This document shows, piece after piece, positions 2,550 through 53,423 of a stretch of 64,000 nucleotides of DNA; position 1 is the first letter of the stretch, and each line of letters starts with the position of its first letter. The position numbers were made by a program, and so were the translations under genes. Under the pieces are notes generated by a model. The model was given only the letters and a program-made list of their open reading frames with translations, was not told the DNA's origin and ran no database searches. The stretch is from Candidatus Cloacimonadales bacterium. Its GTDB lineage: Bacteria; Cloacimonadota; Cloacimonadia; G963667145. The stretch spans positions 356,383 through 420,382 of the forward strand of contig OZ245797.1 of the NCBI GenBank assembly GCA_965228195.1. Reading direction: 5' to 3'.

Positions 2550-3383
2550 CTAGGTCACAAGAACACCCTTGCGGTAAGCGAAGAACATCTTGCCGTCTTT
2601 TTTCAAAACGAAGATAACGATCAACAAAAGCAGTCCGGTTTGGATGATCTTGCTGTCTGGATGAGTAGCAAAAATCTCGTTGGAGACGTTCGCCATTAAA
2701 TGAAAAACAACCGTGATGAAGATGTTGCGGTTTGTTTTGTAGTAGAGCCAATTCATCAAAATCACGAAGACAAAAATGCTGACAACGAAGTTTAAGAAGT
2801 AAATCCAGCCCTCTGCCACGATGTTGCTATGGTAATAGCCTTGCACAAACGAGAGCGGAAGGTGCCAAAAAACCCAGTAAAAAGCGAAGATTAAACAGGT
2901 ATTAAAAAGGTTGAACTTGGCTCGCAGAGCGTCCATCCCGTAAGAGTGCCAAGCTAACTCCTCGGCAAGGGGCGCAAACAGGAGTATGAACCATGGCGAT
3001 AAAAGAAAAGAGGTGAAAGTTGGCTTGCCCGAGATGTAAAACTGGTGCAAATCGTAACCAAAGAGCAAAGAGATGCACTGGGCAACTACTATCGAGACAG
3101 GCAAAAGCAAGAATGCCAGTGCCAAATAGCTCTTGTTCAGCTCCCTTAAGCCCAGCAACCTTTGGGCTAAATCTTTTTTGAGAGTTTTGTCTTTCCAAAA
3201 AAAGTATCCCGCTACCACACAAGGCGACAAAAGCCCCGTGATTGCCAAGAACTGTTGCCAGCCCAAGAGTCCAAAAGATTGATTTGGTCGGTGGCTAAGG
3301 TAAGCCAAAGCAAACCAAAAAGTCCAAGGGATGAATAAAGACAGTCCGTAAAAAGTTAATGTTTTGTTATATTTTTCTAACAT
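2550..3383 (-). CDS. CPBP family intramembrane metalloprotease (CAAX protease / Abi domain)
   Basis: 277 aa polytopic membrane protein. Conserved CPBP motifs are present: EExxW (PLAEELAWHS), FxxxH (FYWVFWHLP) and HxxxN (FHLMANVSNE). Confidence 0.75.
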   Translation of the reverse strand: MLEKYNKTLTFYGLSLFIPWTFWFALAYLSHRPNQSFGLLGWQQFLAITGLLSPCVVAGYFFWKDKTLKKDLAQRLLGLRELNKSYLALAFLLLPVSIVVAQCISLLFGYDLHQFYISGKPTFTSFLLSPWFILLFAPLAEELAWHSYGMDALRAKFNLFNTCLIFAFYWVFWHLPLSFVQGYYHSNIVAEGWIYFLNFVVSIFVFVILMNWLYYKTNRNIFITVVFHLMANVSNEIFATHPDSKIIQTGLLLLIVIFVLKKDGKMFFAYRKGVLVT

Positions 3384-3453
3384 TTTTTCCTCCGTTTTAG
3401 GTTTAACCTATTTTTTTCGTTTTTCCCACTTCACTAATTTAATTCCAAAAAAA

Positions 3454-3476
3454 TATTGACCGACGGTCAGTCAATA
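3454..3476. promoter_or_regulatory. palindromic operator candidate in the divergent CPBP/tetR intergenic region
   Basis: TATTGACCGACGGTCAGTCAATA contains the inverted repeat TGACCG-A-CGGTCA and the outer half-sites ATTGAC/GTCAAT. It lies 14 nt upstream of the tetR start. Confidence 0.35.
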
Positions 3477-3489
3477 TTTTTCTAGTTTT

Positions 3490-4194
3490 ATGATGATCAG
3501 AAAAATAAAAAAAGAAGAGACCGTAGCCAATATCCTTCATATTTCGGAAAAACTATTTTATGAACAAGGGTATGAAAAAACCTCTATCTCTCAGATCGCC
3601 AAAGAGTGCGGTTTGTCTAAAGGTGCACTGTATCACCACTTTACCTCTAAACAGCAGGTGTTAGAAAAGATCTGTCACAACCATTACGAGTTGCTGAAAG
3701 ATATTTTTTTGCCGATTGTCGCCAAGAGATCTTTGAGTATGTTCGAGCGGTTTTTGCAAATAATGAACATCGCCCGCTCTATGCAGATGAACACGGCAGC
3801 CACCACTTTTGCCAAGAGTGAAAAAGCTGACAACCATTCCCCCGAGAATGCGGCTCTAAATCAGTTATTGAACCAATATCACCAAAAAGTTTACCTGGAG
3901 ATATTCAGCTCTCTTCTGGAAGAGGGCAAAAAAAACCAAGAGTGTTCTTTCCCTTGCTCGTCGCAAACCATAGCCAACCTCGTCTTCAACCTAGACAACG
4001 GCACCAATCAAAGACTAAACCAGATCGTTTACCAAGAAAAATCTTTAAAACAGGAAAAGATGTTAAACGACACCATCGACGGGTTTGTGTTCGCTTTGGC
4101 AAATATTTTGAATATGGACACCCAAAAAATCGAAAAAATGATCTTAGCTACGAAGATGAAAGAGATATACAGATCGATCTTAAAGAAAGGATAA
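3490..4194 (+). CDS. TetR/AcrR family transcriptional regulator
   Basis: N-terminal HTH TVANILHISEKLFYEQGYEKTSISQIAKECGLSKGALYHHFTSKQQVL matches the TetR_N signature. Confidence 0.85.
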   Translation: MMIRKIKKEETVANILHISEKLFYEQGYEKTSISQIAKECGLSKGALYHHFTSKQQVLEKICHNHYELLKDIFLPIVAKRSLSMFERFLQIMNIARSMQMNTAATTFAKSEKADNHSPENAALNQLLNQYHQKVYLEIFSSLLEEGKKNQECSFPCSSQTIANLVFNLDNGTNQRLNQIVYQEKSLKQEKMLNDTIDGFVFALANILNMDTQKIEKMILATKMKEIYRSILKKG

Positions 4195-4197
4195 AGA

Positions 4198-5139
4198 ATG
4201 AATCTCAGAAAAAAAATCGCTTTATTGCTCGTTTTGACAAGCAACTATTTAATAGCCAACGAAAAATCTACCAACTACATTCCGTTGTTTCAGTCCGAAA
4301 ATCTCAATGTGAGTGAGCAAAGCCTCCAGTGCCAAAGTGCCGGCTTTGTCATCGAAAAAGAGAACTTCCTTTTTGTGGGAATTACCTCTTTCACCAAGTT
4401 TGAGCAGCAGCCTCTCTTTGAGTTCCCCAAATCTTATCTGTCAATCGATGTTTTGACCGAGTTCAAAAAGAACAGCTCGGAAATCCTTTTCATCTACAAA
4501 TCTGATGCCGACAAAACCGAAAGCTTCGAGTTGCAAACCTTACAAACGGCTTTGGTTTATGGACACAGATTTATCGACAAAGAAAACTTTCAGCTTGTGT
4601 TCGGTGGAGGTTTAGCCGTAAGCGACTTCGGCATAGAGTGTTCCGATGGCTCCACACTCCCTATGATCCCGGTGCCTTTGCTGAGGATAAACTCACACAA
4701 CCAGCTTTTTACCACTAAGTTCGAGTTTATCACCTCCCCCAATTTGGACATTACTTTTTTGCTGAGCGAACATATCAAAGCGACTTTTGAAGGGAGGTTT
4801 GACCAACTAAGAGACGAGCGAGATCTGCTTTTCGAGAGTAAACTTCACTACCGATTTTTCTCCGCTTCTGATGATCTGGGTGATATTGCCGGCGTGGCTC
4901 TCGGGTTCAAAAACGGCAATCATGGCGCCTTTAATCTGGCTAAAAGAGACAATAAAGAGAACGAAACCTTGGAGATCCAGTACCGCTCCATTTTTGCCGA
5001 GCTAGATTTGACACTGCTAAAACTCTCCGCAGGTCACGCCTTCCAAGGCAGAGAACTTTATCAAGATGGCGAGCAGCTGTCCAAGCAAAATGTTGGTGAT
5101 GGCTACTTCTGGAGCGTGCAAGCGTTATACCAGTTTTAA
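4198..5139 (+). CDS. secreted protein, probably an outer-membrane beta-barrel (hypothetical)
   Basis: Signal peptide MNLRKKIALLLVLTSNYLIANE, alternating amphipathic segments, and a C-terminal ...ALYQF with terminal aromatic Phe typical of OMP beta-signals. Starts 4 nt after the tetR stop. Confidence 0.45.
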   Translation: MNLRKKIALLLVLTSNYLIANEKSTNYIPLFQSENLNVSEQSLQCQSAGFVIEKENFLFVGITSFTKFEQQPLFEFPKSYLSIDVLTEFKKNSSEILFIYKSDADKTESFELQTLQTALVYGHRFIDKENFQLVFGGGLAVSDFGIECSDGSTLPMIPVPLLRINSHNQLFTTKFEFITSPNLDITFLLSEHIKATFEGRFDQLRDERDLLFESKLHYRFFSASDDLGDIAGVALGFKNGNHGAFNLAKRDNKENETLEIQYRSIFAELDLTLLKLSAGHAFQGRELYQDGEQLSKQNVGDGYFWSVQALYQF

Positions 5140-5224
5140 AAAAAATTATTAAAATCCAAAAAATTATTGCAAAAGGATACCAAAATATTAGCTTGACTGT
5201 TCTTTCAAGGAAAAGGAGGGAAAG

Positions 5225-5509
5225 ATGATAAAGATCCAATTTTTGATGACCATCGCATCGTCCACCGGCATCAGCAAAGCTGAATTAGATAGCAAAGAAG
5301 AGATCACCGTTCTAAAGACTTTGCAAAGGCTGGAAATTCAAGAGAAGAAGCAGATTATCGACAAAATAATGATCCCAGACAAAACCGAGTTCAAACCAGG
5401 TGTGCTAGTGCTGGCAGGCAAAGAGAACGAGCTACAACCGGCGAAGTTCGACACAATCCTAAAAAGCGACTATCTGCTTAAAGTAACCACCATCGTCGGC
5501 GGAGGCTAA
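5225..5509 (+). CDS. small protein ending in -GGG; C-terminal region resembles a ThiS/MoaD-like beta-grasp (ubiquitin-like sulfur-carrier fold)
   Basis: 94 aa. AAGGAGGG RBS lies 7 nt upstream. The C-terminus ...ILKSDYLLKVTTIVGGG resembles ThiS/MoaD termini (…ILLFQVIAGG). Its stop overlaps the RBS (GGAGG) of the downstream E1-like gene. Confidence 0.5.
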   Translation: MIKIQFLMTIASSTGISKAELDSKEEITVLKTLQRLEIQEKKQIIDKIMIPDKTEFKPGVLVLAGKENELQPAKFDTILKSDYLLKVTTIVGGG

Positions 5510-5512
5510 GAG

Positions 5513-6184
5513 TTGGAAACCATTTTTGATCGATCGACTCTGCTCTGGGGCAGGGCGGATCAAGCCAAGCTGACAAAAGCAAGAGTGGTGCTACTGGGCA
5601 TGGGCGGACTCGGCTCGGCAATCGCCCAAGTTCTGGTCAGAGCTGGAGTAGGAGAGCTGACTTTGTTCGACCAAAAGAGAGTAGATTTGCCCGATTTGGG
5701 CAGGCAACTGCTTTACACCCAAGAAGATTTGAACAAATCTAAGCTTGAGGCGGCTAAAGCTGCCATCTTGAGGATAAATCCAGACTGCATCGTCAACACA
5801 GTTTGCCAAGATATAAATAAGCTAAAAAGTTTACCCGCTGCCGACCTTTTTCTCGACTGCTTGGACAACTTTGCCACTCGCCTGAACATCTGGGAGAAGC
5901 TTCCTGCCCAAAGCTTTTTTGTCCATTGTGGCGTGCGAGCTTATCAAGGCCAGGTGATCACCTTGCAAAAAGCAGTCACCCTTGGTCTGCCAGAGCTACT
6001 ACTCTCGGGCAAAGACGACGATGAGAAAATCCCTATAGCCCCTCAGACGGTGATGTTGGCAGGATCTCTAGCGGCAGATGAGGCTATCGGTATCTTGCAA
6101 GGAAAAGCAAAACTTTTAGGGAAGCTCTTTCAGTTTGACCTGAAAAACCACAGCTTTACAACCATCGAAGGTTTCAATCTTTGA
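5513..6184 (+). CDS. ThiF/MoeB/HesA-family E1-like adenylyltransferase (minimal, no CxxC zinc motif)
   Basis: 223 aa with TTG start. It carries the nucleotide-binding VVLLGMGGLGSAIAQVLVRAGVGELTLFDQKRVDLPDLGRQ motif. LDCLDNFATRLNI...HCGVRAYQGQV aligns to MoeB VLDCTDNVAVRNQLN...SGAAIRMEGQI. There are no CxxC pairs. Confidence 0.8.
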   Translation: METIFDRSTLLWGRADQAKLTKARVVLLGMGGLGSAIAQVLVRAGVGELTLFDQKRVDLPDLGRQLLYTQEDLNKSKLEAAKAAILRINPDCIVNTVCQDINKLKSLPAADLFLDCLDNFATRLNIWEKLPAQSFFVHCGVRAYQGQVITLQKAVTLGLPELLLSGKDDDEKIPIAPQTVMLAGSLAADEAIGILQGKAKLLGKLFQFDLKNHSFTTIEGFNL

Positions 6185-6243: not shown

Positions 6244-6861
6244 TTATAAGACAATATCGGCGAGTTTCTTGTGCTTGACTATCTGCTTATGCTCGATTTG
6301 TAAAACTTTTTCGACGAACTCCGAGATCGGATCTCTGCCCCGCAACTGTCTGTTTTTTTTGGTCTGCAGATAAGATTTGTCGATAAAGCACCTAAAGTCA
6401 ACATTTTGCAAAAGGCTGGTGTAAGTCCCTTCCACAATTATCAAGGCAAAATCGCCAACATCCAGCACCTCTTGACCTATCTTGTCGTTTTCAAAATCTA
6501 CCAAAGGCTTTACCAGTTTTGGCGCCGACATTTTTTTTAAGATAAGCAGATGCTCATCCAGTTTGTCCAATAGAACCTCTTTTGTGCCAACATTGTCTAA
6601 AGATTTGAGACGATTTTGGTGGTTAGTTTGGGGCGGCAACTTGAAATAGTCGTCTTGACACAAAATAACGGCTTGTCCTTCTTGAAAATTTTTTGCCAAA
6701 CAGTAAGCGATCTCGCTCTTGCCACAACCCGATTCTCCTGCGATGCTTACTACAATCTTTTCTTTTTCTACCCTGTTTTTAATCTTTGCAAAGATCTTTT
6801 TGGCAGACTCGATATGAAAATCTTTTATCAATAACTTGTCCCCTTTCACTTCCAACTCCAT
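6244..6861 (-). CDS. P-loop nucleoside/nucleotide kinase (uridine kinase / phosphoribulokinase family)
   Basis: Walker A IAGESGCGKSE followed by a uridine-kinase-like fold. The N-terminus overlaps the 3' end of the upstream GT gene by about 83 nt, so the true start is uncertain. Confidence 0.6.
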   Translation of the reverse strand: MELEVKGDKLLIKDFHIESAKKIFAKIKNRVEKEKIVVSIAGESGCGKSEIAYCLAKNFQEGQAVILCQDDYFKLPPQTNHQNRLKSLDNVGTKEVLLDKLDEHLLILKKMSAPKLVKPLVDFENDKIGQEVLDVGDFALIIVEGTYTSLLQNVDFRCFIDKSYLQTKKNRQLRGRDPISEFVEKVLQIEHKQIVKHKKLADIVL

Positions 6862-8587
6862 TTTTTATATCTAAACCTTTTTTTCGTAAAAACTCGATAA
6901 GGTTTTTTATGGTCACTTGCCAACTTATCTTTTCTGAGATTTTAGTTAGCTTTTTGACATTTTCCATATTTGGCGTATCTAAAGTTTTTTTCATCAACCT
7001 TGCCAGCTCCTGCCCATCTCCGTTAGGGAAAATATCGATACAATCCGCGGCGAAATTGGTAGAAAAAGGGATAAGATCGGAAGAGATGATCTGGCTTTTG
7101 GTAGCTGAGGCTTGAGCAACACTCATCCCAAAACCTTCCATCTCTGAGGCAGAGACATATATATCGGCGATGTAAAAAACTGGTCCAATAAACTTCTGCG
7201 GAATATAGTCTAGCAAAAAAACTTTCTTTTCCAATCCTGGTTTTGCGTTTATCTGCTTCTCCAGCTCGTTATAAACCTTATTTTTTGACCCCCCACCGAT
7301 CAATAAGTAAACATCTTGGTAATCGTCACATATATTGGCAAAAGCTTCTATTATGAGATCTTTTCGCTTGGTCAGATCCATCCTACTTGTCTCAAAAATA
7401 ATCTTGCTTTTTTTTAATAGATCTGGCTTAATATCTGTCACTTCGGCTAAATATTCGTAAGCCAAACTCAGCTCTTCAGGACTATATTTCCTAAAAATAG
7501 ATTTATCTGCCTGTGGATGAAGATAAAAAATGCTCTTTTCATCAACCCGATAGTAAGAGATTAAACAGTCGGTGATTTCCGTGGAGGTTGAGATAAAAAA
7601 AGGCGTTCTGGCACAAATGTTTATCTCGTGACTGTCTCGCTCACGCAGCCGCAAAGAACTTCTGTCCGAAGCAGGAGCTCCTCTCATATTGTAGTTTTTT
7701 ATTTCGCCCAAAGAATGAGGAGTCCAGATATGTTTATTTATCTTGCTAAAGTTTGTTTTTAACTCACCTTTAAACTTTTGACAACGCTCAAATATCTTTT
7801 TCGCCAACAAGGTGATGAAATCTAGCTCTTTATAAGATTCGTCTTGAGTATTGGGCAACTCCTTGAAAATAGCGGCTAAAATTTGTTTGTTGATAAACAG
7901 CTTCTCATGGAAAACAGACTCCCAAATGTCGATGATTTGCAAAGCTTTCCGCTGGACAGACGAGCCCTTAAACTTCTTGAATAAGATCTTAACAATATGA
8001 AAAACTGGCAACTTAGAAATATCTTGCCAGTGTCGATTGCGAAACAATTTATCTTTATCTTTAGTCGATAGATAATCAGCAAAGTATTTTTCCACCAGTT
8101 CATAAACAAAATCGTTTTGCCAAAAATCTATCAAACTCATACCGATCACCCCAGCATCCCAATAGTGAGAGTTTATAAACTCAAAAACTTCCCACTCTTG
8201 GCAACCTTTTGCCTTTGCCTTGTCTTGAACAATCTTATACAGATGATGCAACTCTTGATTCAAAGCAGGAGAGATATTCTCTTTGGGCAAAAACTTATCA
8301 CCGCCTCCACACAGATACTCGTAGCGGACAAACTCGGATAAATAAGAGACTCCTTTGCGTATCTGATAACCTTTATACTTGGGAAATCCACCCCTGGAGT
8401 AGATAGAAACTTTATACCCCAGCTGCTCTAACTTTAGAGCAAGCACATTGACATACACCACCTGTCCACCAGTATCTGGCACCCCACCTATCTTTACTTG
8501 GGGCGAGGCGTAGCCGTGATTGGTGATCAAAGCTACCTCTGGACGCAAAGAGTCCTCAAACAAAAGACCGCTACCATTAAAACACAT
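6779..8587 (-). CDS. GT4 glycosyltransferase of the sucrose-phosphate-synthase / sucrose-synthase family
   Basis: 602 aa. N-terminal HGYASPQVKIGGVPDTGGQVVYV matches the SPS/SuSy GYPDTGGQVVY signature. The C-terminal E-x7-E region (EMEGFGMSVAQASA) is also present. Confidence 0.75.
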   Translation of the reverse strand: MCFNGSGLLFEDSLRPEVALITNHGYASPQVKIGGVPDTGGQVVYVNVLALKLEQLGYKVSIYSRGGFPKYKGYQIRKGVSYLSEFVRYEYLCGGGDKFLPKENISPALNQELHHLYKIVQDKAKAKGCQEWEVFEFINSHYWDAGVIGMSLIDFWQNDFVYELVEKYFADYLSTKDKDKLFRNRHWQDISKLPVFHIVKILFKKFKGSSVQRKALQIIDIWESVFHEKLFINKQILAAIFKELPNTQDESYKELDFITLLAKKIFERCQKFKGELKTNFSKINKHIWTPHSLGEIKNYNMRGAPASDRSSLRLRERDSHEINICARTPFFISTSTEITDCLISYYRVDEKSIFYLHPQADKSIFRKYSPEELSLAYEYLAEVTDIKPDLLKKSKIIFETSRMDLTKRKDLIIEAFANICDDYQDVYLLIGGGSKNKVYNELEKQINAKPGLEKKVFLLDYIPQKFIGPVFYIADIYVSASEMEGFGMSVAQASATKSQIISSDLIPFSTNFAADCIDIFPNGDGQELARLMKKTLDTPNMENVKKLTKISEKISWQVTIKNLIEFLRKKGLDIKNGVGSERGQVIDKRFSYRVCQKDLCKD

Positions 8588-8929
8588 CCGATCTCCTTTC
8601 TTATTTCCCCTTCCTTGAAAACAGTCTAAACAGCCTTAATTATCTGCTTTTCGATAATTAACTGTGTCCTCAAAATATACTTTTTTTACCGTTCGATATT
8701 CATAAACTACAGCCTTTTCTTGTCAATAGGAAAAATGAAAGAAAACGAAACTTGCCATAAAAAAGCCTTTAAAAAAGTGTCCAGTTTTTTGGGTTCATAT
8801 CACTCCTGCGGAGGGCGGACTCTTTTTGCTTTCAGCAAGACCCTCTCTTTTCTTTTTCTCCTGCGGAGGGCTCTGACCACATAAAGAGGGTCTCAAATGA
8901 TTAGCATTCTTTATGTGGTCAGACTAAAA

Positions 8930-9200
8930 AGACAGCTCCGCTTCAAAGCGCCAGCGACGGGGCGTGTCACCAGCAGAGTAAAAAAGTGTGGTTGTTCCCG
9001 CTTATTACCCATACTTTTGTCATTTTCGGCAACTGGCTTTGCACCTATATTTAGAAAGTGATTTTTGTCGCTGGCTTAACAAAGTAACGAAAACGGGCTA
9101 ATTTCCCTTTAAGCGGAGATTGTCCCCGCCAATGGTTCTGGCGAGTCAGCCAAATAAAAAATTGGAAATGAAAAGTGAAAAATTCCACCGAAACCTCACA
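8930..9200. repeat. right arm of the large imperfect inverted repeat (partner of 2150..2445)
   Basis: See feature 2150..2445. A partial inverted copy of the palindromic short repeat lies just inside at 8826-8850. A separate 15-bp-stem hairpin lies at 8877-8927 (ctgaccacataaaga ... tctttatgtggtcag). Confidence 0.6.
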
Positions 9201-9526
9201 CTTTTTTTTTGCATAGTGCTACTGATGGATTCCTGCTTTCGCTAGGAATGAGGGTGGGAGGAGAAAACAGGCTTCTTGCCCTATCCAGCTGGGCGGGATA
9301 GACTAGGTCTCACTTGCTTGCTAGAAGGGTAGGATGGTATACTCCGCTTCATCGGGGTCACTTATTTTCACTTGCTCGGTTGAGCAGAGACACTTGGCAC
9401 TCTCTTTAAGGTGTTGAAAACGCAAAGACCAAAGTGATTAGCTAGTCAGGAACAAATCTCGGAGATGCTCCCCGCCACGGTAATCTTTAAGACATCTCAC
9501 GACCTGTCTCTAGCGAGTTGAAGCGG

Positions 9527-9605
9527 AGCGGTTTTCTTTTCTCTCCCCTCTCTTTTCGTTGAGCGTTCAACGAAAAGAGAGGGTCTGGCTGAAAGCCAAA
9601 CCACC
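9527..9605. repeat. short repeat-family element with a 38-bp near-perfect palindrome (copy 2, direct)
   Basis: gagcggttttcttttctctcccctctcttttcgttgagcgttcaacgaaaagagagggtctggctgaaagc is about 95% identical to 2446-2525. Confidence 0.55.
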
Positions 9606-11461: not shown

Positions 11462-12847
11462 TTATTTTCCAGTAATTTTAATTAATTTTATAGAAATTTT
11501 TTGTCCCATTAAAGCTGCTAAAAATCCAAAGATATAAGCCCAAGGACCTAGAGTTGGTACAAATATTTTTAAAAGTAGATATACAACAAATCCACTAATA
11601 ATTCCTAATGAAGAAGCTGTATTAACAGGTTCTTTTATCATTATTGCAGAAAATATTGAAGGCAATAAAATCACCATTATTTTAAAACCTTCCGTAATAA
11701 GAGATACAATATTGGGTTGTACTATCGCTAATATTGTACTAATAAGTGAAATAATAAAGGAAACTAAAATAATAGAATTAGAATTATTATTTTTTAATAA
11801 ATTCCATGCTTTTAACGATTGTATTATTGCACTTGCAGAAGCATTTAGTACTGTATCCGCACTACTAAAAACAGCAAAGAGAAAAGCAACTATTGCAAAT
11901 CCAAAAATAATTTCATTCAATATTGTTCCATTACCTAATAAATATTTCTCAAATAAATGAAATAAGTCGTTAGAACCTTCCAATTTATTTGACAAACCAA
12001 TAAGGAGTAACATAAAGAAAACAAATAGAAGTATGAACCCAGATATTATATATGCTCGTTTTGCAACAATATCTGTTTTAGCCGTGAAGATTCTTTGCCA
12101 GTGGTCTAATCGAAGAAGTAAAGTAGGAAAAACAAACAAAGAAAGCCATATAAAATAACTAGTCAATGACTGATTAGCAAATGGATTCCAATATGACGTT
12201 TCGACTAAAGACAAATCAACAGGCGATTTGAACATTATTAAAAATATCGCTGTTAAGAGAATGACCAAAACAGCAATAAATTGTATAATATCACTTTTTA
12301 ATACTGAACGAAATCCACCAATTGAAACATATATATAAATAGTTATAGAAGAAATAACTATTAACCAATTTGAATCTATATTTATATGCAAAACTTTAAT
12401 TAATGAAGCCATAGCTACATATTGAGCTGCAAGAAATCCAATATAAATGACTCCATATGAAAAGATTATACCCCCCCATGTAACTTTATTATATTTTTTA
12501 GCAAGTAATAACGGAAAAGATATATTATGATTATCATCAATTAAACCTCTTTCTTGCATATTTCGACCTATCCTTCTAATATATTTTGCAAAAAAACCCA
12601 ATCCAATAAATGAAAGACAGTATACAATAGCTAATAAAATACCTATTATACCGGACGAAGAACCAAATTGAATTAGTCCAAATATTAATCCTCCACCTAT
12701 CGCAGTAGCTAACAATGTAGACATTAAAGGAATTAGTCCAACACTATTGGGCTTTCCTAAATGAAGGTTTAAATCAGTTGTCCTTTCTTTTAATGCTCTG
12801 ATAATTAAAAAAACAAGAGCAATAGCGATGATTATTTTATACGTCAT
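11462..12847 (-). CDS. sodium:solute symporter family (SSF) transporter
   Basis: 461 aa, about 12 TM segments. Contains the SSF-like motifs GGFRSVLKSDIIQ, RLDHWQRIFTAK and FSSADTVLNASASA. Coding is strongly AT-rich relative to its flanks. Confidence 0.65.
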   Translation of the reverse strand: MTYKIIIAIALVFLIIRALKERTTDLNLHLGKPNSVGLIPLMSTLLATAIGGGLIFGLIQFGSSSGIIGILLAIVYCLSFIGLGFFAKYIRRIGRNMQERGLIDDNHNISFPLLLAKKYNKVTWGGIIFSYGVIYIGFLAAQYVAMASLIKVLHINIDSNWLIVISSITIYIYVSIGGFRSVLKSDIIQFIAVLVILLTAIFLIMFKSPVDLSLVETSYWNPFANQSLTSYFIWLSLFVFPTLLLRLDHWQRIFTAKTDIVAKRAYIISGFILLFVFFMLLLIGLSNKLEGSNDLFHLFEKYLLGNGTILNEIIFGFAIVAFLFAVFSSADTVLNASASAIIQSLKAWNLLKNNNSNSIILVSFIISLISTILAIVQPNIVSLITEGFKIMVILLPSIFSAIMIKEPVNTASSLGIISGFVVYLLLKIFVPTLGPWAYIFGFLAALMGQKISIKLIKITGK

Positions 12848-13466
12848 AATATTTTATTTTTTCCTCAATTGATGCGTAAAAACCTGTTAATAAGAACCAA
12901 ACAGTAAAAATTGTTAAATGAATACATGAACCGATTTCAAGAGATAAAATACTGTTATTAACAAATTTGCATGTAATTGGCAATATTATGAATGAAATTA
13001 TTGATAACATTATAATAAAGTATAATAAAGCTCTTACTACTAGTTCCGAGCCACCTTTTTCAATTGCTTCTTCTACATATTCATCAAAAATAGACCAAAA
13101 TGATTTATTAAAGATATAGAAAAGAATTATAACAAATAAAGCTAGTATTGCTAGTAATATTCCAATACTAAAGAGACTTGAATGATTAACAGAAAGACTA
13201 CTAAATGAAAAAGCAATATTAATTATAACCCAAAGTATAAATGTGAAAATACTCGTATTATTTTTTATAAATTTTGGGACATATATGCTAAATAAACCAA
13301 AAATTAGGGAGAATAGTATACTTACAAAAGAAAGTGAAGTAATTAAATTAGAAGTATCCCCTGATGTAAGCAGAGTAACTGTTATAGCCATAGGTACTCC
13401 AAAAACAATTTCAATCATTGTTGATACAGAACTCGGCAAAGGGTTTTTAAGCATTTTTATTATCAT
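12837..13466 (-). CDS. hypothetical polytopic membrane protein
   Basis: 209 aa with several hydrophobic helices. Overlaps the downstream SSF gene by 11 nt. AT-rich. Confidence 0.4.
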   Translation of the reverse strand: MIIKMLKNPLPSSVSTMIEIVFGVPMAITVTLLTSGDTSNLITSLSFVSILFSLIFGLFSIYVPKFIKNNTSIFTFILWVIINIAFSFSSLSVNHSSLFSIGILLAILALFVIILFYIFNKSFWSIFDEYVEEAIEKGGSELVVRALLYFIIMLSIISFIILPITCKFVNNSILSLEIGSCIHLTIFTVWFLLTGFYASIEEKIKYYDV

Positions 13467-13954
13467 AGCTGTAAATCTTTAATTATATAGCCAATACCTT
13501 TTGAATAAAAGTATTTTTGGGAGTAAGCCTCAAATAAAACAATACATTTTTTGGATTGACTTCGGATTTTAAGAATCTTTGTTTCTATACAGATTTCATT
13601 GCACAACGGAATCGGTTTAATTATTTTAGTTTCAATTTTGGGAACAAGACAATAACCTTCTTCAACAAGAAATCTAAACCCTTTAATTGACCCCCAAAAT
13701 CCGTTAATCTGGTTTTTGCTAATTTCATTATCCAAGTGTACAATTAATGATTGCTCAATCCCTAAATTTATTAAATTCAAGCTAGAATATTGCATTCTAG
13801 TATTTGTAAAAGGGTAACTATCAAATGAGGCTTTAAACAAATAATTAGACTTGTCTATGACTTTTTCTATAGATTTTATTAATCTATATTCAGTTTTATA
13901 TGCATTTAAAGCATATCCGATTAATGTTCCTTTCATTAGAGTTTGTTTATTCAT
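13463..13954 (-). CDS. hypothetical protein
   Basis: 163-aa ORF, AT-rich, no recognisable motif. Overlaps the next gene by 4 nt (operonic). Confidence 0.4.
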   Translation of the reverse strand: MNKQTLMKGTLIGYALNAYKTEYRLIKSIEKVIDKSNYLFKASFDSYPFTNTRMQYSSLNLINLGIEQSLIVHLDNEISKNQINGFWGSIKGFRFLVEEGYCLVPKIETKIIKPIPLCNEICIETKILKIRSQSKKCIVLFEAYSQKYFYSKGIGYIIKDLQL

Positions 13955-14361: not shown

Positions 14362-14625
14362 TTTTAATTTCTATTTTTTAATTTAACAGAGGAGTTTTTT
14401 TTGCCTAAATTCGCAGTAATTTGCCCTGAAGCTGCGTGATGCATCCTGCGATGCTAACAACAGCTGGGCAAGGACGAGGCAGGGCATTTTTAATTATTAA
14501 CTTTTTTTTAATTTAACAGAGGATTTTTTTTGCCTAAATTCGCAGTAATTTGCCCTGAAGCTGTATATTGTATACTGCGATAGGGGAAATTGCAAAAAAG
14601 TTGGGCAAAAAAAAATCCTCTGTTA
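14362..14625. repeat. tandem about 135-bp duplication downstream of the 5S rRNA, forming long hairpins that include the 5S 3' end
   Basis: ttttaatttaacagagga(g)ttttttttgcctaaattcgcagtaatttgccctgaagctg occurs at 14362-14425 and 14497-14560. aacagaggattttttttgcc (14507-) is complementary to ggcaaaaaaaaatcctctgtt (14604-14625), which overlaps the 5S 3' terminus. Confidence 0.6.
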
Positions 14626-14745
14626 TGGCGGCGTCCTACTCTCCCACACAGTCGCCCGTGCAGTACCATCGGCGCAGACAAGCTTAACTGCTGTGTTCGG
14701 AATGGGAACAGGTGTTGCCTTGTCGCTATAGCCACCATAACAAAG
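14618..14745 (-). rRNA. rrf: 5S ribosomal RNA
   Basis: Reverse complement reads TGTTATGGTGGCTATAGCGACAAGGCAACACCTGTTCCCATTCCGAACACAGCAGTTAAGCTTGTCTGCGCCGATGGTACTGCACGGGCGACTGTGTGGGAGAGTAGGACGCCGCCATAACA, with canonical helix I pairing. Confidence 0.9.
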
Positions 14746-14949
14746 AACTTTAGATTTTGTTAAACTGCAAGAATTAGGCTTTATATTTAGCACTCGTTTT
14801 TTGAGAACCTCACCCTCTCGCAGTGTCATAAACACAGCTTCGGGGTTCGTTTCCCTAAAAAACAAGCACTTTAACAAAATCTAAGCTTTGGCTAATTTAA
14901 CAAATTAACAAATTGTTATAGTAAAAAGTTGGTGAGATATTAAAAAGAA

Positions 14950-17932
<2,983 letters not shown>

Positions 17933-18017
17933 TTATCTCACCACTTCTATAAAATTTCTATTCAAAAGATCGAAAAATATTTTTTGCCGCTGATTGCGAC
18001 TTTTTACTCTAAATAAA

Positions 18018-18093
18018 TGGTGGAGGATAACGGATTCGAACCGTTGACATCTTGCTTGCAAAGCAAGCGCTCTACCAGCTGAGCTAATCCCCC
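18018..18093 (-). tRNA. tRNA-Ala (anticodon TGC) in the 16S-23S spacer
   Basis: Reverse complement GGGGGATTAGCTCAGCTGGTAGAGCGCTTGCTTTGCAAGCAAGATGTCAACGGTTCGAATCCGTTATCCTCCACCA. Cloverleaf with G3:U70 and encoded CCA. Confidence 0.92.
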
Positions 18094-18154
18094 AGCAAAT
18101 TGCTGAAGCAATTTGCAATTAATAGTTTATAATTGACAGTTGATAATTAAGGAG

Positions 18155-18508
18155 CTAACGCACGTTTTTCACCTTTTTGACTATTGCAGTCAAAATTTTG
18201 ATTATCTCTATCAAATCGTTTTTAAGACTAAAAACCTCTTTTTCGCCCAAATATTCACCAGCCAACAAATCGAGCCAATACTCTGTTTCACCAGCCTCTT
18301 TGAGAGCTATCGACAATTTCGAGACAAAATCTCTTTTGCTTTGCGCATTTTGACTTTCCTTGATGTTCGCACCAATCGAAGTCCCGCTTCTCAAAATCTG
18401 CCTCGACAAAACATACTCTTTCTTATCAACATTCAAGCTTTTACACAGCTTCACTATCTTTTTAGCAAACACAAACGCTTTCTCGTAAACGATATTTTTT
18501 CTTATCAT
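18155..18508 (-). CDS. four-helix-bundle protein ('23S rRNA intervening-sequence protein' family, TIGR02436 / PF05635) embedded in the 16S-23S ITS
   Basis: 117 aa from the ATG (the ORF track's TTG start at 18556 is probably upstream read-through). The motifs ...RSGTSIGANIKESQNAQSKRDFVSKLSIALKEAGETEYWLDLL... are typical of this family. It is on the same strand as the rRNAs and has a GGAG RBS. Confidence 0.8.
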   Translation of the reverse strand: MIRKNIVYEKAFVFAKKIVKLCKSLNVDKKEYVLSRQILRSGTSIGANIKESQNAQSKRDFVSKLSIALKEAGETEYWLDLLAGEYLGEKEVFSLKNDLIEIIKILTAIVKKVKNVR

Positions 18509-18606
18509 CTTCCAAATCGCTCCAAGCCCCAAAATAATTGCCTTCACAATTATCAATTATGAATTGTCACTTGATAATTCATTTGACACCAAGAAATGGT
18601 GTCAAA

Positions 18607-18683
<77 letters not shown>

Positions 18684-18745
18684 ATCAGAATAAAAATTAG
18701 GTAGAGTAAACCCAAAGCCAATCGGCTTTTTCTTTTTTCCTTTAA

Positions 18746-20311
<1,566 letters not shown>

Positions 20312-20800: not shown

Positions 20801-22276
20801 CTAATTGAAGCTAGGTTTTTCATCATCTTTCCATTCATACGAAGTCTCTTCATCAAAATCACTAGTATCTTTTACAGCAGAAACATTCCATCCACTTATA
20901 TTTCTATTAAAGTTGGACGCTTCCTTAAACATCGAGTTCATATTAGTCACACTGCTCACAACCCAAGATTCAATATCTCCATTAAAATCGTCAGCCTCTT
21001 CAAACATCTGGCTCATATTAAGAACACTTGTAACAGTCCAGTTCAAATCTTGATTAAAATCATCGGCATAGTAAAACATCTTACTCATATCGGTTACACT
21101 ACTAACATTCCAACCGCCGATAGGTTGATTAAAAACTAAAGCCTGCTCAAACATCTGACTCATATCGGTCACCTTGCCCACTTTCGTAGCCCAAGTGCTA
21201 ATGTTTTGGTCAAAATTTTTAGCTTTTCTAAACATCGCTCTCATCGTGGTAACACTATCGACGTTCCAGCGACTAATATCTTGATTGAAAGTCGAAGCGT
21301 TATCAAACATCCCCGTCATATTCTCGGCACTGCTCACATCCCAATCACCAATATTTTGATTAAAAGAGGTTTTATTTTGAAATAAATAACTAAAGTCGGT
21401 AATCTCACTGACATTCACATTGGTTATATCTTTGCCAGAGGCAACCATTTTGTCTAGTGTTGCCCTGGTTATCGCATTAAAGGTAGGCTTACTTTCAACC
21501 GTCCAAACACTATCATTACTCTCGGTATCAAAGTCGTAATAATAAGCCACCTTGCTCACATCCCAGTTTTTTATATTACTATCAAAAGATTGCGCACCCC
21601 AAAACATATTGTCCATGGTGGTAACCTCGCCAACCTGCCAACTACTCAAATCTGCCTCAAAATCCTTGGCGTTATAAAACATATAAGACATATCTTTGAC
21701 TTTATCAACTTCCCAACCGCTAATATCTTGATTAAATTTTGTCGCCCCACAAAACATACCTTTCATATTGGTAACGTTACTAACATCCCAACCACCTATC
21801 TCTTGATTAAAAGTGGAATTGTTTAAAAAAAGATCGTGCATATCTGTAATGCCAGAAACATTCACTTGCGTAACAATCACATCGTCGCCCATAGCTAGCA
21901 TCAACATAAGCTCTTCTCGAGTAGCCAATCCAGTAGTAAAACTCCAAACATCACTCTCTATTCGAGAGCCGTCAGATTTATTCCAAACCACTTTCCAGTA
22001 GTAAGTCTTGCCGTTAGACAAATCCCTGGGTACGATGTAACTCGTCGATTTATAGTCGTCAACAATTTTACGCGGCACTTCTCTTGAGTCACTTAGGTAA
22101 ACTTCGTAACTCTCCGCTTCTCCGCTCCAGCTTAGCTCAATGGTTGTGTTTTGCGCAATAGAGCCATCAGAAGGAGCCACCAACTCGTCAGGATCTACTC
22201 CTCCAGAACTTGAACTGGAAGAACAACCCACCAATAATAACAACATCGTAAAAGTTAAACCTAATAATTTCTTCAT
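20801..22276 (-). CDS. BspA-type / DUF285 (PF03382) repeat surface lipoprotein with N-terminal fibronectin-III-like domain
   Basis: Lipoprotein signal MKKLLGLTFTMLLLLVGCSSSS. More than 10 tandem repeats of about 24 aa of the form FxxAxxFNQ(D/N)I(S/G)xW(D/N)VSxVTxMxxMF, as in DUF285/'Mycoplasma protein of unknown function' repeats. Confidence 0.75.
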   Translation of the reverse strand: MKKLLGLTFTMLLLLVGCSSSSSSGGVDPDELVAPSDGSIAQNTTIELSWSGEAESYEVYLSDSREVPRKIVDDYKSTSYIVPRDLSNGKTYYWKVVWNKSDGSRIESDVWSFTTGLATREELMLMLAMGDDVIVTQVNVSGITDMHDLFLNNSTFNQEIGGWDVSNVTNMKGMFCGATKFNQDISGWEVDKVKDMSYMFYNAKDFEADLSSWQVGEVTTMDNMFWGAQSFDSNIKNWDVSKVAYYYDFDTESNDSVWTVESKPTFNAITRATLDKMVASGKDITNVNVSEITDFSYLFQNKTSFNQNIGDWDVSSAENMTGMFDNASTFNQDISRWNVDSVTTMRAMFRKAKNFDQNISTWATKVGKVTDMSQMFEQALVFNQPIGGWNVSSVTDMSKMFYYADDFNQDLNWTVTSVLNMSQMFEEADDFNGDIESWVVSSVTNMNSMFKEASNFNRNISGWNVSAVKDTSDFDEETSYEWKDDEKPSFN

Positions 22277-39778: not shown

Positions 39779-42076
39779 TTAGTCCTCGATGGGACGATGG
39801 TATCTACTGAGTAGATACATACCAAAGGCAAATCCGCCTACAGTCAACGCAATCAGCAGCGACGATGAGCCAGGGTGAGCAAAGAAATTCGCCAATTGGT
39901 AATAAACCGTGGCTACACACCATGCCAAAATTGTCAAATAAGAACTGACTAAAACTGTCCAACCGAGGTTCGTCTCGCGGTAGATAGCCCCCACAGCGGC
40001 GACGCACGGCACATAGATGAGGATGAAAAGCAAATAGGCGTAGGCGGCTGAAACGCTACCAAACTTTTGTAACATATCGCCGAAAGTGGCAGTGTGGATC
40101 TCCAGCGCCTGAGCAGTCTCCGCTTTGCTTTGTCCAACATCGCCAAACCCTAAAGGGTCTCCCATGGCCACGAAGATCTCGCCCAAACCATCTCCCAGAG
40201 CGACGAAGGCGTCTTCTATTCCCGCCCAAAAATCGAAGCTATCGTTTTCATTAGCAACATCTTCGCTCTTTTTGTAAAGGGAGTTCAGCGTTCCCACCAC
40301 CGCCTCTTTGGCAAAAATACCTGTAAACAAACCCACCGTAGCTGGCCAGTTCTGCTCTTGGATGCCCATTGGCGTAAAAACTGGTGTTATCGTCTTGCCG
40401 ATTGCCGACAAGACCGAACTCTCCGAATCTTCGTTGCCGAAGCTACCGTTGGTGCCGATGGAGTTCAAAAAACTCAACACAACCACGATGATCATAATCG
40501 CTTTACCCGCTTTTTGGATAAACACCTTCAGTCTTTGCCAAGTGTGAAAAAAGATGCCACGGACCGTAGGAATATGGTAACTGGGAAGCTCCATCACAAA
40601 AGTGGAAACCTCACCCTTGATGAGAGTTTTTTTCATAATAAACCCGGTGAAGATAGCCAACAAGATGCCTATCAAGTAAATAGAAAAGACCATTTTACCC
40701 GCGTTGTTGGGGAAAAAAGCTGTTCCAAAAAGGACATAGACAGGAAGCCTTGCCCCGCAAGACATAAACGGAGCCATCATTATCGTCAAGAAACGGTCTT
40801 TGCGGCTCTCCAAAGTGCGAGTCGCCATTATCGCCGGCACCGTGCAACCAAAACCGACCAACATCGGCACAAAAGATTTCCCGGGCAAGCCGATGACTTT
40901 CATCAATCTATCCATCACGAAAGCTGCCCTTGCCATATACCCCGAGTCTTCCAAGATCGATAAACACAAGAAGGTGAAAAAAATCGGAGGGATGAAAGTT
41001 GCCACCGTCTGAATACCTCCACCCAAACCACCGGCTAAAAGAACTTTTGCCCAAACTGGCACTCCGATACTCTCCAGCAAAGAGCCCAAGCCATCGACAA
41101 AGATTGTGCCGGCAAATCCATCAAAAAAGTCGATGAAAGGTCCAGCTAGGTTCAAAGATGCCCAAAAAACCAAATACATCACCACCAAGAAAAGCGGAAT
41201 GCCAATCACGCGGTGCAAAACCACCTTGTCTATGGCTTCGGTGACCGACCTGCCGATCTGGTCGCTACGATTTACCACATCTTCGGCAATTCCGTTGATA
41301 AAACCGTATTTGCCATCGGCGATGACCAAATCGGCGTCTTCACCGGTGTGCTTTTCGATCTTCTCCACCAGCGTCTTGATCTTCTGGTCCAAACTATCTG
41401 GGATCACCTGATAAGCAAACTCGTCGTCTTCCAAAACTTTCACCGCCAGCCAGCGGGCATCCACACGCTCTTTTTGAGCATAAGGCTCCACCAGTGGCAA
41501 GATCTGGTCGATCTGCTGCTCGACCACCTGATCGTAAACGACTCTGGTCGCCGAGATTTTTTTTACCTCCAACTGCGTTGCGATCACCTCTTTCAACTCT
41601 TCCAAACCTTTGTTTGCTGCGGCAACAATCGGCACCACCGGACAATCCAGATGCTTGGCAAAATGTTCGACCTCGATCTTGATCTTCTTGCGTTTTACCG
41701 CGTCCATCATATTCAAGGCAACCACCACCGGCACGCGCATCTCCAGCAGTTGCGTAAGCAGATACAAACTCCGCTCCACATTGGTGGCGTCGATGATGTT
41801 GACCACCACATCGGCTTTCCCCGAGAGAATAAAGTCGCGAGTCACCTTCTCGTCGATTGAGAAGCTGGTCATCGAGTAAATCCCGGGCGTGTCCACCACC
41901 TCGATTTTGGCACCCTTATACTTCATCTGCCCACTTTTTTGCTCCACGGTCACCCCAGGCCAGTTACCCACATACTGGCTGCTGCCGGTTAAGGCGTTAA
42001 ACAGGGTGGTTTTGCCACAATTTGGGTTGCCGGTTACGGCAATAGTCATCTTCTTATTCATCCAAAGCCTCCACAT
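39779..42076 (-). CDS. feoB: ferrous iron transporter FeoB
   Basis: 765 aa. G-domain G1 GNPNCGKTTLFNALTG and G4 NMMD, followed by the gate and core polytopic membrane domain. Confidence 0.92.
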   Translation of the reverse strand: MWRLWMNKKMTIAVTGNPNCGKTTLFNALTGSSQYVGNWPGVTVEQKSGQMKYKGAKIEVVDTPGIYSMTSFSIDEKVTRDFILSGKADVVVNIIDATNVERSLYLLTQLLEMRVPVVVALNMMDAVKRKKIKIEVEHFAKHLDCPVVPIVAAANKGLEELKEVIATQLEVKKISATRVVYDQVVEQQIDQILPLVEPYAQKERVDARWLAVKVLEDDEFAYQVIPDSLDQKIKTLVEKIEKHTGEDADLVIADGKYGFINGIAEDVVNRSDQIGRSVTEAIDKVVLHRVIGIPLFLVVMYLVFWASLNLAGPFIDFFDGFAGTIFVDGLGSLLESIGVPVWAKVLLAGGLGGGIQTVATFIPPIFFTFLCLSILEDSGYMARAAFVMDRLMKVIGLPGKSFVPMLVGFGCTVPAIMATRTLESRKDRFLTIMMAPFMSCGARLPVYVLFGTAFFPNNAGKMVFSIYLIGILLAIFTGFIMKKTLIKGEVSTFVMELPSYHIPTVRGIFFHTWQRLKVFIQKAGKAIMIIVVVLSFLNSIGTNGSFGNEDSESSVLSAIGKTITPVFTPMGIQEQNWPATVGLFTGIFAKEAVVGTLNSLYKKSEDVANENDSFDFWAGIEDAFVALGDGLGEIFVAMGDPLGFGDVGQSKAETAQALEIHTATFGDMLQKFGSVSAAYAYLLFILIYVPCVAAVGAIYRETNLGWTVLVSSYLTILAWCVATVYYQLANFFAHPGSSSLLIALTVGGFAFGMYLLSRYHRPIED

Positions 42077-42740
42077 TCAAAGCGTCCGCCTCTTTCTTAC
42101 GAAGCGTCAGGTTAAAATTGTTTATCAAAATCTCGAGCGGATCTCCCATCGGAGCCACCCTTATCACCTCAAAAACTTTCCCTTTGACCAGTCCCATAGC
42201 CAAAAGTTTCTTGCGATAAGATTTGTCTTGGGTGTCGTAAGAAACGATCTTCGCCTTGTCTCCCACTTTCAAATCTTTAAGCTTCATACTCTCTCTCCTT
42301 AAAATATTATTTTGACAAGCTTTGCACTCTCCAAAAAGGTTAACTTGACAATCTTGCAAAATGAAGTTCTCGTCTTGGCAAATCTTCTCTAGGTTTTTTC
42401 TAACCAAATCGATAGATTTTTCGACAACCTTTCCACATTTTCGACACACAATATGAAAATGTTTCTGGTGACCAAAAATATGCTCATAAAACTCTTTTTC
42501 GCCATTGCCCACCGTCTTCTTGATCAGCTCACACTCTTCCAAAATCGGCAAAGTCCGATAAATGGTAGCTTTGGAAATATCTACAGATTGGTCTAAAAAG
42601 TATTTAAAAATATCGTCCGCGGCAAAATGGGTATGAGTCGAAAAGACATAACCAACAATCAGCTCTCTTTCTTTGGTAATCTTAAATCCACTGTCTTTTA
42701 GTTTCTGCAAAACCGTCTTTTTTTCTTGCATCTTCTTCAC
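42054..42740 (-). CDS. fur: Fur-family metalloregulator fused in-frame to a FeoA domain
   Basis: Residues 1-146 form a Fur fold with HHFHIVCRKCGK and FGECKAC metal sites. Residues 150-228, MKLKDLKVGDKAKIVSY...EVIRVAPMGDPLEILINNFNLTLRKKEADALNVE, are FeoA. There is no in-frame stop between them. An AAGGAG sits 8 nt upstream of the internal FeoA ATG. Confidence 0.8.
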   Translation of the reverse strand: MKKMQEKKTVLQKLKDSGFKITKERELIVGYVFSTHTHFAADDIFKYFLDQSVDISKATIYRTLPILEECELIKKTVGNGEKEFYEHIFGHQKHFHIVCRKCGKVVEKSIDLVRKNLEKICQDENFILQDCQVNLFGECKACQNNILRRESMKLKDLKVGDKAKIVSYDTQDKSYRKKLLAMGLVKGKVFEVIRVAPMGDPLEILINNFNLTLRKKEADALNVEALDE

Positions 42741-45133: not shown

Positions 45134-45400
45134 CTACTGATAAACCTCTTTTCTGTGGGCAATCCGAATTATGGTTATGATTAAAACCCCTTTCTCTTTT
45201 GCGTAAACAACCCTGTAGTTGCCCACTCGTAGCCGATACTTCTGGCTACCTCTGCCGATGAGCTTTTTGGTGCTGCCTGCCAACACACTCGGGTCGCAAG
45301 CCAACAGCTTCAGCTTATCAACTACCCTTTTTTGCCAGATCAAATCTATCTTTTCCAGCTCTTTCTTAGCTTTTTTCAAGAAGATTACCTTATACTTCAT
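45134..45400 (-). CDS. type II toxin, RelE/ParE family
   Basis: 88 aa. ...KKAKKELEKI...YRLRVGNYRVVYAKEKGVLIITIIRIAHRKEVY is a typical RelE/ParE fold sequence. Overlaps the upstream antitoxin by 4 nt. Confidence 0.75.
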   Translation of the reverse strand: MKYKVIFLKKAKKELEKIDLIWQKRVVDKLKLLACDPSVLAGSTKKLIGRGSQKYRLRVGNYRVVYAKEKGVLIITIIRIAHRKEVYQ

Positions 45401-49489: not shown

Positions 49490-49491
49490 AC

Positions 49492-50496: not shown

Positions 50497-50517
50497 AACA
50501 TCTTCTCTTTTATCATC

Positions 50518-53385: not shown

Positions 53386-53423
53386 AACTATCGATTAGAT
53401 AATTTTTGCCAAAATAGTTCCTT

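Follow-up and report, generated by a model that had tools for sequence, protein, structure and literature searches.

What a 94-residue protein ending in three glycines and the minimal E1-like enzyme encoded directly behind it do in a Candidatus Cloacimonadales bacterium, and whether they work together with the regulator, outer-membrane protein (OMP) and protease genes at their side, is the question raised by positions 2550-6184 of the 64-kb stretch of contig OZ245797.1 that we analyzed as a whole (the window). A sequence-only reading had joined five open reading frames (ORFs) there, all of which we recovered at the same positions, into a single TetR-controlled cassette, possibly a ubiquitin-like conjugation module or an MccB-like peptide-modification system, with an orphan ThiS/ThiF-like pair as its fallback. 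We scanned the ORFs of the window against Pfam and NCBIfam, predicted structures, and compared related loci. Judged by gene order in relatives, the five genes are two independent modules whose adjacency is specific to this genome: a CPBP protease, TetR and OMP trio, and a pair formed by the 94-aa protein (the carrier) and the 223-aa enzyme (E1). Sequence comparison suggests that the pair descends from a MoaD-like/ThiF-like pair encoded directly 3' of a tungsten aldehyde:ferredoxin oxidoreductase (AOR) in many anaerobes, other Cloacimonadota included, and it is probably a relocated, fast-evolving MoaD/MoeB-type unit for molybdopterin or tungstopterin sulfuration. The nearest relatives of the pair lie on circular chromosomes of metagenome-assembled Candidatus Cloacimonadota/Cloacimonadales genomes of ~1.56 Mb; two of these sister genomes, OZ223280.1 and OY781092.1, provided the pair loci L001 and L002 and, together with the window genome, make up the three genomes referred to throughout.

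The carrier (5225-5509, forward strand) ends in KVTTIVGGG directly before a TAA stop. Its free Gly-Gly-Gly is invariant in the three genomes, as are all 11 residues of the tail LLKVTTIVGGG, where AOR-linked relatives have FPPxGGG. The beta-grasp-like fold that the sequence-only reading had proposed is borne out by modeling: AlphaFold2 (AF2), run on the three-sequence alignment, gave a model with pLDDT 89 and pTM 0.80, in which the elements follow a beta-grasp-like order and the tail is flexible. Foldseek against PDB placed SAMP1 (3po0, TM-score 0.73), E. coli MoaD, human MOCS2A, P. furiosus MoaD, Urm1 and CysO on top, and the best 24 matches show the sulfur-carrier beta-grasp and no different fold. 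Direct sequence searches gave far less. Pfam yielded nothing at E <= 0.1, the ThiS/MoaD model PF02597 included; NCBIfam yielded SAMP1 only, end to end but weak (E 0.04, 14 bits vs a cut-off of 60); and the best PDB sequence match of the carrier profile was yeast Urm1, end to end at a non-significant E of 0.37. By sequence search the carrier occurs in the three genomes only: its three-sequence profile, run with HMMER against 1.84 billion representative proteins, recovered its own cluster plus one spurious repetitive protein, and no near relative turned up in two metagenome scans, of which one used the carrier and the other E1 from the three-genome clade.

The family of the carrier emerged from the small proteins encoded 5' of E1 homologs in AOR clusters. 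With hhalign, the carrier alignment matched 14 AOR-linked MoaD-like proteins over 92 columns (probability 97.5%, E 6e-12), and a hidden Markov model (HMM) of the AOR-linked small proteins covered the carrier end to end at 33.7 bits, making it the sole match (E 2e-9) among 760 six-frame ORFs of the window. All four scanned AOR-linked proteins, three of which belong to the 14 used with hhalign, have Pfam PF02597 matches along with weak Urm1 matches, and the small protein of the metagenomic contig L003 also has a precomputed PF02597 match. Profile and model comparisons together place the carrier as a divergent predicted member of the MoaD family, set apart by its tail: its TTIVGGG end departs from the F/V-P-P-x-x-G-G pattern of MoaD proper.

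The second member of the pair is a predicted minimal MoeB/ThiF-type adenylyltransferase of 223 aa that starts with TTG (5513-6184, forward strand). It matches Pfam ThiF (PF00899) at E 4e-42, with 144.4 bits vs a cut-off of 28.1 over residues 6-218, and the solved structures that it matches best are those of E. coli ThiF (3.7e-21) and MoeB (3.4e-20), both near full length. The motifs GxGGLG (G29, G31-G34), D53, R64-Q65, K77 and D115-C-L-D118-N119 are invariant in the homolog alignments and line up with the nucleotide-binding and catalytic motifs of ThiF. As the sequence-only reading had noticed, the enzyme has no CxxC zinc motif; its four cysteines are scattered at 92, 98, 116 and 139. Most aligned homologs, the AOR-linked ones included, lack CxxC as well, so its absence is not peculiar to this E1. 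There is no rhodanese domain, and the region aligned to the ThiF crossover loop holds no cysteine; most of the aligned homologs are without these features too. Among NCBIfam equivalogs, all scores fell far below the cut-offs (PRK08328 113/339, ThiF 112/275, MoeB 105/266, UbaA 81/450), and the best match was PRK08328, a short ThiF-family model of 231 positions.

The two genes are tightly coupled. The GGAGG ribosome-binding site of the E1 gene (5501-5505, forward strand) lies inside the carrier's Gly codons, the carrier stop TAA follows at 5507-5509, and the TTG start at 5513 stands 3 nt beyond the stop. The same GGAGG-stop-TTG layout recurs in L001 and L002, which shows that the coupling and the TTG start are real and conserved; the sequence-only reading was right about the coupling and wrong in one detail, the stop codon sitting after the GGAGG and not within it. 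In the sister genomes E1 is 221 aa long; its (M)E-TIFDRS N-terminus is conserved, and both ORFs are intact in the three genomes at 55-71% identity. The original genome annotation called the pair proteins at 87 and 194 aa, calls that appear shortened; in another assembly the two measure 94 and 223 aa. Carrier and E1 also share a reading frame, separated by TAA-GAG, and read-through of this one stop would fuse them; such a fusion is in frame in the window and L002 and out of frame in L001, and is probably incidental. A common promoter 5' of the pair was likewise set aside, as the window and L001 share only a weak similarity there (TTATTGC...TTGACT) in AT-rich DNA.

The origin of the pair was traced through the neighborhoods of E1 homologs, for which 49 genome loci were gathered using a four-sequence E1 alignment. 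The nearest E1 outside the clade (41% identity) is encoded on L003 in the order Fer4, AFOR, Pyr_redox_2, ThiS (90 aa) and ThiF (220 aa), and identity to the AOR-linked group as a whole ranges from 33 to 41%. About 20 of the 49 genome loci, in addition to L003, show an AFOR gene, then a ~92-aa ORF ending in FPPxGGG, then a short ThiF gene; their hosts include Cloacimonadota, Bacteroidales, Spirochaetaceae and Hydrothermota, among others. Three further loci lie 3' of an apparent molybdenum subunit of the xanthine dehydrogenase (XDH) family, as judged by its C-terminal sequence. In a neighbor-joining tree all 100 bootstraps recovered the three-genome E1 clade as monophyletic; Cloacimonadota AOR-linked E1s were part of its sister group in 87, and this sister group fell wholly inside the AOR-type group in 81; the whole AOR-type group as an exclusive clade was weak (28 of 100).

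By gene order, the AOR-linked arrangement appears to match aorD and aorE of Aromatoleum aromaticum, in whose aorABCDE operon the products of these two genes are described as MoaD-resembling, putative factors for maturation of the tungsten cofactor (PMC6365974). With aorDE included on the expression plasmid, the specific activity of recombinant AOR was 16 U/mg instead of 4.5 U/mg (PMC9295118). MoaD-family ubiquitin-like proteins (Ubls) of Thermococcus kodakarensis similarly serve tungsten-cofactor synthesis, and one of their genes adjoins an AOR gene (PMC11323500). In our survey the nearest outside relatives of E1 stand consistently beside a MoaD-family gene in AOR clusters, that is, in pterin-enzyme clusters, which is essentially the canonical setting that the sequence-only reading had itself named as telling against a new system. 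Of the readings it had offered, the fallback of an orphan ThiS/ThiF-like pair was nearest the mark; MoaD/MoeB describes the pair better.

In the mechanism that we propose, an E1 dimer would bind ATP and adenylate the C-terminal glycine of the carrier (Gly94), as the intact catalytic motifs suggest. The acyl-adenylate would then be turned into a thiocarboxylate by a persulfide donor, either a cysteine desulfurase or a rhodanese, whose gene lies elsewhere, since E1 itself lacks a rhodanese domain. The thiocarboxylated carrier and a MoaE-type partner would in turn sulfurate cyclic pyranopterin monophosphate to form the dithiolene of molybdopterin or tungstopterin, a step to which both the ancestry of the pair and the presence of client enzymes point. 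In the course of genome reduction in this lineage, the pair would have split from AOR and evolved fast, the carrier losing its FPP tail and escaping the Pfam models.

Two likely clients can be named, the AOR of the lineage and an XDH-family protein. The latter, a 731-aa molybdopterin-binding protein of the xanthine-dehydrogenase/aldehyde-oxidase family (42863-45058, forward strand), matches MoCoBD_1 (4.7e-50), MoCoBD_2 (1.3e-46) and Ald_Xan_dh_C (1.1e-16), so the genome very likely needs molybdopterin. The sequence-only reading had seen no cofactor biosynthesis genes nearby; none indeed occur among the scanned window ORFs, although this cofactor-binding protein does. AOR genes were found at related-genome loci that carry the OMP gene: in L059 (1-3660), drawn from a pair-bearing sister genome, and in L060 (1-4159), drawn from a related genome in which the pair was not detected, genes for Fer4 (160 aa), AFOR (605 aa), a NuoE-like 2Fe-2S protein and a NuoF-like protein lie beside the TetR module. 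These AFORs are 51-58% identical to AFORs with an adjacent MoaD/ThiF pair, and no MoaD-like or ThiF gene was found after the AOR in either locus. Unlike the AorABC type with its FAD subunit, this operon suggests an NAD(H)-coupled tungsten aldehyde oxidoreductase. As to the surroundings of the XDH-family gene in the window, it has no adjacent Fe-S or FAD subunit genes; on its 5' side lie a Fur-FeoA fusion (42054-42740) and FeoB (39779-42076), and on its 3' side two overlapping ORFs of 88 and 71 aa (45134-45612) that resemble a toxin-antitoxin pair by appearance.

Several observations weigh against a role in pterin sulfuration. An FPPxxGG tail is typical of MoaD, and the carrier has TTIVGGG in its place; with this ThiS/Urm1-like ending the partner enzyme may have changed, and the best, though non-significant, PDB sequence match is Urm1. 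The 64-kb window has no AOR/AFOR gene, and neither the window nor the loci retrieved from related genomes showed moaE, moaA, moaC or moeA. Neither pair protein found a match in three related small genomes with the OMP gene, of which one or more (L060) also have an AOR, so the pair seems dispensable for AOR in some relatives. The papers on aorD and aorE, finally, describe these genes as MoaD-resembling or as maturation factors only, and do not state that AorE is a ThiF-type protein.

The same observations lend some weight to a different acceptor. Here the adenylation and thiocarboxylation chemistry would be unchanged and the acceptor enzyme different, the pair now serving tRNA 2-thiolation (like TtuB/TtuC or Urm1/Uba4), thiazole synthesis (like ThiS/ThiF) or cysteine or homocysteine synthesis (like CysO/HcyS). 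The change from FPPxGGG to a new tail that is invariant in three genomes would fit such a switch, and so would the end-to-end Urm1 match of the carrier profile, at an E of only 0.37, the presence of Urm1 and CysO besides MoaD among the Foldseek matches, the weak Pfam Urm1 matches in the AOR-linked relatives, and the detachment of the pair from AOR together with its absence from some AOR-bearing relatives. Against this stands the ancestry, which points to an AOR-linked MoaD-type pair. Moreover, no ThiG/ThiH, TtuA/Ncs6, CysM or MetY-type gene adjoins the pair in the three genomes, and the window encodes MnmA (59615-60658), the enzyme that makes s2U34 independently of a Ubl; with no acceptor gene linked to the pair and MnmA present, the case for a non-pterin acceptor is weakened. 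Since no moa gene was seen in the loci covered, the tail has changed and the pair went undetected in some relatives, at least one of them with AOR, we nevertheless keep it as a minority possibility, perhaps one chance in a handful.

A more dismissive view would hold that the pair is a decaying remnant of AOR maturation, redundant with a canonical MoaD/MoeB encoded elsewhere and on its way out of a shrinking genome. Its patchy spread among related ~1.55-Mb genomes, the loss of synteny with AOR, and an evolution so fast that carrier relatives went undetected outside the three genomes among the 1.84 billion representatives would all agree with decay. A decaying pair is hard to square, however, with two ORFs that are intact at this level of divergence, with adenylation motifs that are all kept, with an invariant 11-residue carrier tail, with conserved coupling signals and with a confident fold prediction. 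These features indicate purifying selection on the pair, and we regard the remnant explanation as improbable. We grant a similarly small chance to a pair that gained its invariant non-MoaD tail after leaving the AOR operon and was repurposed, the carrier now being an Urm1/SAMP-like dual-function protein that would either modify other proteins or bring sulfur to some target outside pterin synthesis, possibly expressed by read-through from the TetR module in this genome. A relocated MoaD/MoeB-type unit for pterin sulfuration remains our preferred account of the pair.

Whether the pair belongs with its neighbors can be answered from the relatives. The two sister genomes each keep the genes for the carrier (94 aa) and E1 (221 aa) together, immediately 3' of htpG, with FTCD and isocitrate dehydrogenase genes and an ECF sigma-factor cluster as further neighbors, and no TetR, OMP or CPBP gene occurs near the pair in either. 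In the sister genome of 1,555,846 bp, TetR and OMP lie at ~0.36 Mb and the pair at ~1.33 Mb, ~1 Mb apart. Conversely, L060 and L061 hold the CPBP(-)/TetR(+)/OMP(+) trio followed by a gene on the opposite strand, without carrier or E1, and in another Cloacimonadota genome (L064) TetR, OMP, a beta-lactamase-family gene and CPBP run in the same direction, again without the pair. The TetR module of L059 stands without the pair as well. The phyletic patterns differ too: of the three genomes in which the pair turned up and the five small ones in which the OMP gene did, two are shared.

These findings bear directly on the original proposal, in which all five genes would be one TetR-controlled system, the carrier acting as a ubiquitin-like modifier or as an MccB-like peptide precursor and the OMP and CPBP proteins providing export, maturation or immunity. 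The genes are indeed adjacent and co-oriented in this genome, the 85-nt gap between OMP and carrier (5139-5225) has no predicted forward-strand terminator, a second assembly (L066) has the same gene order, and MccB is among the PDB sequence matches of E1 (E 1.4e-15). Yet the adjacency is not kept, pair and trio being separate in the sister genomes and differing in phyletic pattern, and genomes with no pair at this locus still carry the conserved operator in the promoter region of CPBP/TetR. The MccB match spans only the Rossmann core (E1 17-125 vs MccB 110-221) and leaves out the N-terminal peptide-clamp region, which E1 does not have, and the carrier is a folded 94-aa MoaD-family beta-grasp protein, not a short peptide. 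No E2- or JAB/deubiquitinase (DUB)-type family was found among the adjacent genes with Pfam and NCBIfam, which argues against ubiquitin-like conjugation as well. The comparative data largely refute the one-system idea, and we consider it very unlikely. Transcription may read through from OMP into the carrier gene in this genome, which would not be a conserved feature.

How the two modules came together may be recorded in the flanking DNA. Long non-coding inverted repeats (2185-2454 vs 8926-9189; arms of 168, 42 and 36 nt, 83-88% complementary) bracket a 6.5-kb segment that holds CPBP, TetR, OMP, carrier/E1, a kinase and a glycosyltransferase, which fits a local rearrangement uniting both modules. 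A 108-nt direct repeat (2414-2521 vs 9498-9605) contains a perfect palindrome of 38 nt, CCCTCTCTTTTCGTTGAGCGCTCAACGAAAAGAGAGGG, whose two copies in the window lie at 2462-2499 and 9546-9583. These repeats may be a miniature inverted-repeat transposable element-like sequence or a recombination substrate that explains the rearrangement. The kinase and GT4 glycosyltransferase genes next to the pair overlap as called: the P-loop kinase ORF of the uridine-kinase/PRK family (6244-6861) shares 83 nt with the 3' end of the 602-aa glycosyltransferase ORF (6779-8587), and the true kinase start probably lies further downstream. The second assembly just mentioned, L066, is a 10,109-bp linear contig from another sample (ENA ERZ25074352, ctg16398_30x_l); it carries two mirror-image copies of CPBP-TetR-OMP-carrier-E1 around truncated kinase/glycosyltransferase fragments, probably a long-read foldback assembly artifact or a product of the inverted repeats just described.

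The trio is a separate, conserved and uncharacterized envelope module. Its CPBP (Rce1-like) intramembrane protease (2550-3383, reverse strand) matches the Pfam Rce1-like family at E 5e-11 and NCBIfam MmRce1 at E 2e-48, the latter under the family cut-off, and is transcribed divergently from the TetR-family regulator (3490-4194, forward strand; Pfam TetR_N E 1.6e-17). Beginning 3 nt past the TetR stop, and co-operonic with it, is a 313-aa ORF (4198-5139, forward strand) with no Pfam or NCBIfam family match. The OMP-like character that the sequence-only reading had given it is supported by modeling: AF2 predicts an N-terminal signal helix and 16 strands (pLDDT 87), and Foldseek ranks porin-type OmpG and OmpM1 on top at a low TM-score of ~0.4, consistent with a secreted outer-membrane beta-barrel. 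The protein has 49 homologs in Cloacimonadota and Spirochaetes. A distant one (~41% identity) is encoded in L062/L063 (4259-10345) beside an ICMT-family methyltransferase, a major facilitator superfamily transporter and an FtsX/ABC pair. Such neighbors, taken with the linkage to CPBP at other loci, hint at an envelope or efflux role for this OMP family.

Control of the trio can be read from the divergent CPBP/TetR intergenic region, which contains an inverted repeat with 25-nt arms (3440-3464 and 3466-3490, 80% complementary) and, within it, the candidate TetR operator AATATTGACCGACGGTCAGTCAATATT (3452-3478). Just 5' of TetR, L059 and L061 keep its core TTGACCGACGGTCAGTCAA and L060 keeps the reverse complement, which with the window makes four genomes. 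The palindrome that the sequence-only reading had singled out is therefore present and conserved in its core, and it makes a credible TetR operator; since TTGACCGACGGTCAGTCAA is kept at TetR/CPBP in genomes without the pair there, it would serve the TetR/CPBP module and not the carrier and E1 genes. The trio is plausibly an envelope or efflux-type stress unit in which a TetR repressor with a conserved operator is joined by a barrel and a CPBP protease.

Other features of the window lie apart from both modules. A bacterial rRNA operon occupies 14623-20311 on the reverse strand. Beside it, the segment 12001-14000 has a very low GC content (0.28) and two ORFs without a family match (12837-13466 and 13463-13954), and on its other side is a 491-aa DUF285 repeat protein (20801-22276). 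At 46969-54422 we found a Bat/MoxR-type cluster consisting of a MoxR AAA ATPase, DUF58, an ORF without a family, a BatA-like VWA protein, a second VWA protein, a TPR protein and BatD; such clusters are typical of aerotolerance operons in anaerobes.

The value of these results lies mainly in annotation, and they reveal no new kind of system. A carrier that neither Pfam nor NCBIfam recognizes at significance can now be assigned to the MoaD family, and its E1 can be placed with the AOR-associated short ThiF enzymes. The pair is also a natural example of a cofactor-maturation unit that parted from its client operon while the genome shrank and has evolved fast since, and it could help tell the MoaD-type residues needed for E1 recognition from those needed for MoaE recognition.

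Set against known systems, the pair differs from the bacterial ubiquitin-like operons that combine E1, E2 and JAB/DUB genes: E2 and JAB genes are absent among its window neighbors and among the HtpG and FTCD neighbors in the sister genomes, and its E1 has no catalytic Cys loop. MccB, of microcin C7, shares a ThiF-type adenylation core with E1, but it has an N-terminal peptide clamp and acts on a heptapeptide ending in Asn, whereas E1 has no clamp, the carrier is folded and ends in Gly, and the window contains no microcin-type genes. E. coli MoaD (1fm0) is also a beta-grasp protein with a C-terminal Gly-Gly and matches the carrier in Foldseek at E 7.7e-4 and TM-scores of 0.62-0.70, and MoeB (1jw9/1jwb) matches E1 over residues 17-215 with shared nucleotide-binding and catalytic motifs; E1 is ~25 residues shorter than MoeB and has neither of its two CxxC zinc pairs, and the window pair is linked with neither moaE nor any further moa gene. 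Among archaeal systems, SAMP1 of the SAMP1/UbaA type is the best structural match of the carrier and the sole NCBIfam family that aligns with it end to end. Thermococcus contributes short ThiF-family proteins (~232 aa) among the E1 sequence matches, as well as the MoaD-family Ubls TK1065 and TK2118 of tungsten-cofactor synthesis (PMC11323500). These archaeal proteins are also conjugated to other proteins, and their sequence similarity to the carrier is non-significant, whereas the window pair is bacterial. Last come the AOR-linked pairs, arranged in gene order like aorD and aorE. They adjoin AOR, whereas the window pair does not (~1 Mb from AOR in a sister genome), and their carriers end in FPPxGGG and, where scanned, match PF02597, whereas the window carrier ends in TTIVGGG without such a match. 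The likeness otherwise runs through both genes: a ~90-aa GG-terminated beta-grasp gene tightly coupled to a ~220-aa ThiF-family gene without zinc motif or rhodanese, with E1 ancestry in common (sister in 87 of 100 neighbor-joining bootstraps) and homology between the carriers (hhalign 97.5%).

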